This document shows, piece after piece, positions 44,799 through 45,157 of a stretch of DNA of 64,000 bases. Below the pieces are notes generated by a model. That model had not been told where the DNA came from and did no database searches. It worked only from the letters and a program-made list of their open reading frames with translations. Location: sequence record PV390658.1; one strand, 5' to 3'. Position 1 is the first letter of the stretch. Each line of letters begins with the position of its first letter. The DNA is from Escherichia phage vB_EcoM_P54. The translations under genes were made by a program, and so were the position numbers.

Positions 44799-44977
44799 CA
44801 TAAACCAACGGGTACTCACCAGCATCACTTAAGAGTCTTCTAAGAAGGTTTTTAAGTGATGCTCGGTCAGGTATGGTGCGGTGGTGTAAGGTGGTGTCAG
44901 GTGTAGTATGGTGCGGTGATGTGAGGTATGGGTAGTTAGTCTCAGCTACATTAAAATGAGACTTACCTTTTTAAAAG
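44799..44977 (+). ncRNA. candidate small structured RNA (about 175 nt)
   Basis: Downstream of the promoter at 44765; 12-bp stem AGCATCACTTAA/TTAAGTGATGCT (44821-44863); GGT-phased tract; hairpin AGTCTCA-GCTACATTAAAA-TGAGACT (44938-44963) followed by a T-rich run; no ORF. Confidence 0.35.
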
Positions 44978-45157
44978 GTCTTTAAACAGGGTATTTTAAT
45001 AAGGTAGTGTCAGGTTAGGTTAGGTGCGTTTTGGTAGGGTAGGGTAAGGTTCGGTAAGGTATGGGTGGATGGTAGTAGCCACGTTAAAAATCTACCAAGT
45101 TTCTAAAGAGTCTTCTGTTGAGGGTTCTTTACAAACAACTTAACAATCAACTAAAGT
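44978..45157 (+). repeat. second GGT-phased tract plus hairpin upstream of gene 45173
   Basis: GGTTA GGTTA GGTGC ... GGTAG GGTAG GGTAA GGTTC GGTAA pentamer phasing (about 45015-45075); hairpin GGTAG-loop-CTACC; motif GAGTCTTCT. Confidence 0.5.

Follow-up and report, generated by a model that had tools for sequence, protein, structure and literature searches.

The closest described counterpart of the locus reported here is the Viral Interference Programmable Repeat (VIPR) system, which is known from two bioRxiv preprints of April-June 2026 that are not yet peer reviewed (10.64898/2026.04.26.720920, 10.64898/2026.04.26.720927). According to these texts, VIPR comprises Vipr, a minimal RAMP protein combining an RRM core with a G-loop and a thumb, an accessory protein (Vap), and the vrRNAs, which are about 100 nt long, flank the vipr gene and consist of 9-16 YNNGG repeats in which GGY is conserved and NN hypervariable (10.64898/2026.04.26.720920, 10.64898/2026.04.26.720927). 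The 3' tail of a vrRNA is described there as invariable and, in the SUSP1 clade, as forming a pseudoknot (10.64898/2026.04.26.720920, 10.64898/2026.04.26.720927), while the structures reported place one Vipr protomer on each GGY/NN repeat (10.64898/2026.04.26.720927). The vrRNAs of SUSP1 were detected by small-RNA sequencing and purify together with Vipr, and guide-dependent transcriptional repression is shown for SUSP1 only (10.64898/2026.04.26.720920, 10.64898/2026.04.26.720927). Targets are recognised there by an NN match of at least 80% on either strand, the skipped base falling mostly at the codon wobble position, and most guides of the SUSP1 clade are directed at a satellite phage in E. 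coli genomes; the authors' set comprises 13 loci and 41 vrRNAs, and their cut-off for the SUSP1 clade is a protein identity above 90% (10.64898/2026.04.26.720920, 10.64898/2026.04.26.720927).

Class 1 CRISPR-Cas systems, in the form of Cas7/Csm3, resemble VIPR in their RAMP fold, glycine-rich loop and thumb, in the assignment of one protomer to each RNA segment, in periodic base flipping, and in the combination of a variable guide with a conserved handle. They differ in that the present locus has two protein genes only, with no CRISPR array, Cas1/Cas2 or other cas genes. The period of VIPR is 5 nt, of which three are sequestered and two read, whereas that of CRISPR is 6 nt with five read; each VIPR guide is an RNA of its own, genetically fixed, in place of an acquired spacer; and the published output of type II VIPR is transcriptional silencing, with no nuclease.

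A period near 5 nt is also seen in the RNA leader sites of Bacillus TRAP, which consist of about 11 conserved triplets separated by spacers of 2-3 nt and belong to leaders that switch between terminator and antiterminator. The conserved triplet is GGY in our locus, as opposed to GAG/UAG in TRAP sites, a helical RAMP filament takes the place of an 11-mer ring, and the spacers here carry sequence information.

The locus described below lies in a Felix O1-like myovirus (Felixounavirus) with 95% DNA identity to several GenBank phages. It shares with SUSP1 the plan of the vrRNAs (GGY/NN repeats, a conserved last repeat and a pseudoknot tail) and their position flanking vipr-vap1, as well as the predicted class of target, an E. 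coli satellite with helper-like structural genes. It differs in the layout of the array, which is 1 + 3 in SUSP1 and two upstream plus two downstream here. Comparison of the sequences leads us to conclude that its four periodic tracts are very probably the guide regions of four vrRNAs in a type II VIPR locus of the SUSP1 clade, and the element is therefore one already known from the 2026 preprints. The statement in a previous, sequence-only reading that no phage element with this architecture had been described was true until April 2026.

Periodic tracts and the vipr-vap1 locus

That reading had drawn attention to runs of 5-nt units led by GGT at four places in the window (by which we mean the whole 64-kb stretch of DNA analysed), and the runs are indeed there. 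Most units begin with GGT, some with GGC, TGT or AGT, and one with GTT, and there are 9-14 repeats per tract when the conserved final GGTAT is counted. In a Fourier scan of all 64 kb for G at period 5 (sliding frame of 70 nt), the power stands out only at 44859-44939, 44974-45108, 46225-46357 and 46376-46494, where it reaches 2.0-4.6 against a window mean of 0.15; the corresponding scan for C, which is equivalent to examining the other strand, returned nothing comparable across the 64 kb. A shuffle control had been suggested along with the original observation, and every tract is more strongly periodic than any of its 2000 dinucleotide-preserving shuffles. The scan and the shuffles therefore confirm the periodicity, with the correction that 44864-45080, which had been treated as a single block, is not periodic as such because it contains two tracts in different phase together with a spacer. 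The description of the tracts as non-coding also holds, no + strand ORF of at least 40 aa covering them, and the expectation that a real signal should be conserved is borne out by 20 related phage loci and by five of six distant metagenomic viral loci, in which the periodicity is kept.

The tracts lie in two intergenic regions (44759-45172 and 46204-46579), two modules apiece, on either side of the two genes that we designate vipr and vap1 (Table 1), with a DNA ligase gene upstream. In public phage records the locus appears as hypothetical proteins, promoters, terminators and one idiosyncratic 'StbAB binding site' repeat, and a gene-essentiality paper on the related phage Bas63 contains nothing on these intergenic regions. 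A transcriptional regulator gene of the HTH_3/Cro-C1 type is located at 47140-47469, about 0.6 kb downstream of the VIPR locus.

The product of vipr is identical to SUSP1 Vipr at 192 of 195 positions (98.5%), and that of vap1 to SUSP1 Vap1, whose gene lies directly downstream of vipr there, at 144 of 146 (98.6%); SUSP1 is itself among the related loci that we compared (L017). A 45-member family profile matched PDB entry 36pp, 'SUSP1 Vipr protein', at E = 1.4e-79. The published residues for holding G1, G2 and Y3 and for touching the DNA (H17, K33, R39, E71, M72, K82, G87, K88, R138, C173, D177, W178 and R179) are all present at the same positions; residue 175 is V in both the Vipr of the window and that of SUSP1, where the preprint text gives T175. 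The AlphaFold model of Vipr has a pLDDT of 94.8, and its closest folds in Foldseek are the Csm3/Cas7 RAMPs (TM 0.4-0.5). The family has more than 520 relatives, which are without a Pfam domain or an informative name; Pfam holds no family for either the vipr or the vap1 product, and PHROGs places both solely in families of unknown function. Our working ideas of a tRNA-like 3' end, a TRAP-like ring, a G-quadruplex and origin iterons or DNA bending were dropped once the profile had matched the SUSP1 Vipr entry.

All four modules have the same plan, in which a G-U-rich hairpin of 12-19 bp is followed by the pentamer tract and then by a conserved 3' pseudoknot element (Table 1). A search of 43500-47500 against Rfam 15 with E up to 10 gave nothing relevant, vrRNAs not yet being an Rfam family, and ARAGORN reported no tRNA or tmRNA.

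Table 1. Features of the locus, with positions in the window; repeat counts include the conserved last repeat and vrRNA lengths are predicted
Feature	Position	Strand	Description
Sigma-70-like promoter (putative)	44765-44792	+	TTGACA, 16-nt spacer, TATACT; 11/12 in consensus scan
Hairpin 1	44822-44862	+	19 bp, several G-U; -21.2 kcal/mol; 3' arm overlaps first vrA unit
vrA	44860-44964	+	13 variable units 44860-44924, GGTAT 44925-44929, pseudoknot tail 44930-44964; NN guide TC CA AT GC GG AA GG CA GT AT GC GA GA; 14 repeats; 105 nt
Hairpin 2	44966-45004	+	Between vrA and vrB; outer pairs join end of vrA tail region with first GG of vrB
vrB	45003-45097	+	11 variable units 45003-45057, GGTAT 45058-45062, pseudoknot tail 45063-45097; NN guide AG CA TA TA GC TT AG AG AA TC AA; one irregular unit, GTTTT; 12 repeats; 95 nt
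Hairpin 3	45104-45131	+	-10.2 kcal/mol; no tract follows; between vrB and vipr ribosome-binding site
vipr	45173-45760	+	195-aa RAMP-family protein, repeat binder; phrog_4652
vap1	45763-46203	+	146-aa accessory protein; phrog_5926
Intrinsic-terminator-like hairpin and T run	46215-46237	+	After vap1, immediately before vrC
Hairpin 4	46231-46268	+	Before vrC; -11.2 kcal/mol
vrC	46267-46366	+	12 variable units 46267-46326, GGTAT 46327-46331, pseudoknot tail 46332-46366; NN guide TC AA TC AT CT AT CC GC TC GT AA GA; 13 repeats; 100 nt
Hairpin 5	46366-46408	+	Between vrC and vrD; -19.2 kcal/mol
vrD	46404-46488	+	8 variable units 46409-46448, GGTAT 46449-46453, pseudoknot tail 46454-46488; NN guide GA AC CG AT TA CT AT TT; possible extra unit TGTGA at 46404; 9-10 repeats; 80-85 nt

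The hairpins share a motif (apical GTCTT...AGGGT) that occurs in five copies, before each vrRNA and before vipr, and nowhere else in the window. When the flanking hairpins were compared across loci, all 58 distinct versions were more stable as + strand RNA (-14.9 kcal/mol, against -8.6 kcal/mol for the reverse complement), with about four G-U pairs each, and the outermost base pairs connect the end of a vrRNA with the GG that opens the following one. These hairpins are not discussed in the VIPR preprint text consulted (10.64898/2026.04.26.720920, 10.64898/2026.04.26.720927). In other VIPR types, hammerhead ribozymes serve as the maturation signals.

The putative promoter would, we infer, serve vrA, vrB and vipr, and transcription of vrC and vrD, with the terminator-like hairpin directly upstream of them, would call for read-through or for a start of their own. 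A further hairpin at 44781-44820 (GGTGAGTA...TACTCACC) starts within the -10 element of this promoter-like site and would form the 5' leader of a vrA-vrB-vipr transcript. At the other end of the locus, after vrD, a different hairpin of 11 bp (46492-46534, ATAAGCTATAA...TTATAGCTTAT) surrounds the -35 element of the next promoter-like site, at 46507-46535, which precedes a gene of unknown function (46580-46963).

Conservation of the tails and turnover of the guides

A search of viral contigs with the 195-aa protein as query brought up 18 Felixounavirus loci and, at 37-40% identity, six distant metagenomic ones. The 5-nt periodicity of G flanks the Vipr homolog in all loci but one, and it is always on the coding strand. 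One GC-rich distant locus carries a near-perfect (GGCNN)x14 run that extends from a stop codon to the ribosome-binding site of the next gene, and the other distant loci repeat the two-gene cassette and have tracts on both sides of it as well as between its genes. Since the tracts persist beside such distant homologs, the conserved feature is a GG-pyrimidine-N-N repeat linked to a Vipr-family protein.

The distant VIPR loci, all on metagenomic viral contigs (L021-L026), display other array styles, and none of them has an Rfam match. In L025 and L026, near-perfect (GGCNN)/(GGTNN) runs fill whole intergenic gaps and end in GGTTTTTT; L025 also has, at 3641-3688, a stem around the tRNA T-arm-like sequence GGGTGCGAATCCC between two tracts. 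In L021 (4200-4600) the array is downstream of the genes, and hairpins with GNRA loops are found between short tracts. In some GenBank relatives of the phage the upstream region seems to be partly missing (coverage 25-37%).

A covariance model of the tail identified 90 copies in the window and 20 related loci, at three to five per locus, recovering the published 1 + 3 arrangement of SUSP1 and giving two upstream and two downstream copies in the window. The tail folds, judged by eye, as an H-type pseudoknot, for which the four copies in the window have stem sequences that are different and yet complementary. Across the alignment 89% of the pseudoknot cells are paired, compared with 69% in shuffles (0 of 500 reach the observed value), and pairing falls to 26-45% when the partners are slid against one another. 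Changes on both sides were recorded at 9 of 12 pseudoknot pairs (three of four in stem 1 and six of eight in stem 2), and the covariation score is 0.579, against 0.235 in shuffles (again 0 of 500) and 0.06-0.16 in the slid controls. The model fitted the tail alignment to stem 2, and stem 1 is therefore the more independent test; it is 100% paired.

The conserved tail is joined to a guide that is anything but conserved. Among 68 distinct aligned vrRNA 3' parts, column entropy is 1.64-1.99 bits at the NN positions and 0.11-1.02 bits at GGY, the exception being the final repeat, a conserved GGTAT that goes with the tail. The 90 vrRNAs contain 68 distinct guides, in phages whose Vipr proteins are 97-100% identical, so that guides turn over almost completely between phages with essentially one protein. 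None of the four guides of the window was found in the 20 related loci, the only close relative being that of vrA, which is 96% identical to a guide in one of them (L003).

Predicted targets in an E. coli satellite

Guides were searched as one-base-skip patterns, and exact matches to 8-10 units were sought in viral contigs. With vrA, one provirus contig was matched over the whole of the variable part, all 13 units or 26 of 26 positions. The site is in frame in the tape measure gene of a satellite, where it encodes the peptide SQMAGKGQVMAEE, and the skipped base is the third codon position. The guide of vrB matches the same satellite tape measure gene at 21 of 22 positions. That of vrC matches 22 of 24 positions on the antisense strand of a hypothetical gene of 107 aa in the same satellite family, again with the wobble base skipped, so that the skipped base is the third codon position in both of the reading frames checked. 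For vrC, the nine 5'-most units found an exact match in viral contigs and the ten 3'-most units did not, since the one unit that fails to match is the last variable unit at the 3' end. No base-shuffled guide out of 300 reached the match scores of vrA, vrB and vrC.

For vrD there is a weak candidate at best, a site that matches at 16 of 18 positions where one satellite variant encodes the start (NIGYVRVSS) of a small serine recombinase; 1 of 400 shuffled guides scored as high. Nine units of this guide had no exact match in viral contigs; eight units had 12 exact matches of 16 bases, which is approximately the number that a rough expectation gives by chance, and none of these falls within an E. 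coli element that could be recognised. The recombinase site also remained the best for vrD when a purpose-built BLAST query was run against 5,426 E. coli genomes, and viral contigs offered no better one. Hence at least three of the four guides (vrA, vrB and vrC) appear, as judged by these matches, to be aimed at a satellite in E. coli chromosomes.

The element that contains the vrA target is an E. coli chromosomal element of about 11 kb, inserted in yecE. It encodes baseplate and tape measure proteins along with a serine recombinase, an HTH protein, a Dam methylase and several small hypothetical products. The vrC target is in an element of the same family between tonB and yciI. The family is mosaic and is present in about 560 of 5,426 complete E. 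coli genomes (about 10%), and six further variants have the same sites with 15-26 matching positions. When all distinct guides of the clade were compared with two satellite copies, 11 and 9 of them matched at 85% or more within the element and none in the flanking chromosome.

The satellite copies that we delimited are about 10-11 kb in length and include 11532-22660 of L028 (NZ_AP045169.1), 5148-15680 of L031 (NZ_CP038295.1) and L044-L049. As a group these satellite-like elements encode a large serine recombinase, baseplate and tape measure proteins and small hypothetical products, along with a gene of the HNH or HTH type and either a Dam methylase or a small recombinase; they occupy at least three insertion sites (yecE, tonB-yciI and yegR-yegS), and in RefSeq they are without mobile-element annotation.

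The satellite baseplate protein is 82% identical to the phage's own (59371-60135, - strand), and the satellite tape measure protein 27% identical to its counterpart in the phage (60159-62384, - strand). At the corresponding site in the phage's own tape measure gene, at 61297, vrA matches 19 of 26 positions as against 26 of 26 in the satellite. Within the 64-kb window (about 24 kb of the phage genome being outside it) the self-matches of vrA, vrC and vrD are at most 75% of NN positions. The guide of vrB has a self-match of 18 of 22 (82%, where the preprint cut-off is 80%) in an AT-rich sequence at 1576-1607 (+); 3 of 300 shuffled guides do equally well, and this match is probably due to chance.

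Alternative readings and a proposed explanation

The observation that conserved triplets recur at 5-nt intervals is open to explanations other than an RNA guide, and the nearest of these is that the tracts are sites for a TRAP-like ring protein, an 11-14-mer employed in attenuation or translational control, with spacers that have no guide role. The 9-14 conserved triplets with 2-nt spacers are what TRAP sites look like, and the tracts are placed in 5' leaders and between genes, as such control would have it. Yet no TRAP-family protein was detected in the locus with Pfam or PHROGs, the neighbouring RAMP protein assembles into a helical filament on RNA and not into a ring, and three of the four spacer sets are near-perfect gapped matches to a satellite, far beyond what shuffled guides attain; we consider this reading very improbable. 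The sequence-only reading had offered a multivalent protein-binding array on DNA or RNA, which was essentially right at the RNA level, given the published one-protomer-per-repeat structures and an adjacent protein that is 98.5% identical, but the guide role of the variable bases went unseen. The main function of the tracts is to provide guide sequence in the two variable bases of each unit.

The same reading had also entertained G-quadruplexes and phased DNA bending, neither of which is supported. The GG-N3-GG-N3 spacing formally fits two quartets, so that the tracts might on their own form two-tier quadruplexes in RNA or DNA and act as road-blocks to transcription or replication with no protein partner. 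This is hard to reconcile with a first G that T or A frequently replaces (9-24% of the 68 distinct vrRNAs, for the three aligned repeats nearest the tail), or with a third base that is almost always a pyrimidine, which the published Vipr pocket needs and a quadruplex does not; moreover, the guanines sit in protein pockets in the published structures, and the link between tracts and vipr holds throughout, even in loci with a protein identity of 37-40%. A quadruplex role thus has very little probability, and we give equally little to the tracts acting as DNA, whether through phased bending, as origin iterons, or as a packaging site to which a DNA-binding protein attaches. A 5-bp period is half a helical turn, and the locus adjoins DNA ligase and other early genes, both of which would suit a role at the DNA level. 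Against this, only G on the coding strand shows the periodicity, the 58 hairpins without exception fold better as + strand RNA, the pairing of the pseudoknot survives two-sided changes, and the homologous RNAs were recovered by small-RNA sequencing and purify together with Vipr. Strand-specific tracts situated between RNA hairpins and a compensated RNA pseudoknot speak against quadruplexes and bending alike.

In proposing how the four vrRNAs would operate as VIPR guides, we follow the published scheme. Each Vipr protomer would flip out G1, G2 and Y3 of a repeat and present N4 and N5, and the helical Vipr filament would grow from the pseudoknot end towards the 5' end of the RNA and unwind double-stranded DNA. 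The NN dinucleotides would then pair with the target strand, every third target base being skipped, and the R-loop triplex formed on the target would block transcription. The consequence, we infer, would be the silencing, in infected cells, of a satellite by which the phage would otherwise be exploited. The hairpins would presumably be the points at which the primary transcript is cut into single vrRNAs. A more tentative proposal, which we regard as possible though rather less than probable, goes further on two points together: that the G-U-rich hairpins are the maturation signals of type II arrays, cut by host RNase III or a phage factor, and that two guides directed at the satellite's copy of the tape measure gene, at a motif where 7 of the 26 bases read are different in the gene of the phage itself, constitute a self/non-self discrimination between helper and satellite.

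The gain in annotation is that two 'hypothetical' genes become vipr and vap1 and two 'empty' intergenic regions become four guide RNAs. To what has been published, this study adds four new natural guides, three of them with predicted satellite targets, the possible discrimination of helper from satellite at the tape measure motif, and the observation of the hairpins. The periodic signature was picked out from raw sequence alone, which means that such signatures can be detected by eye. VIPR is under development as a small programmable DNA binder, and as a system it gives RNA-guided DNA recognition a second logic, apparently an older one, by which a 5-nt repeat reads two bases and skips one. For the biology of these phages and their host, the predicted targets are in a satellite carried by about one in ten complete E. 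coli genomes.
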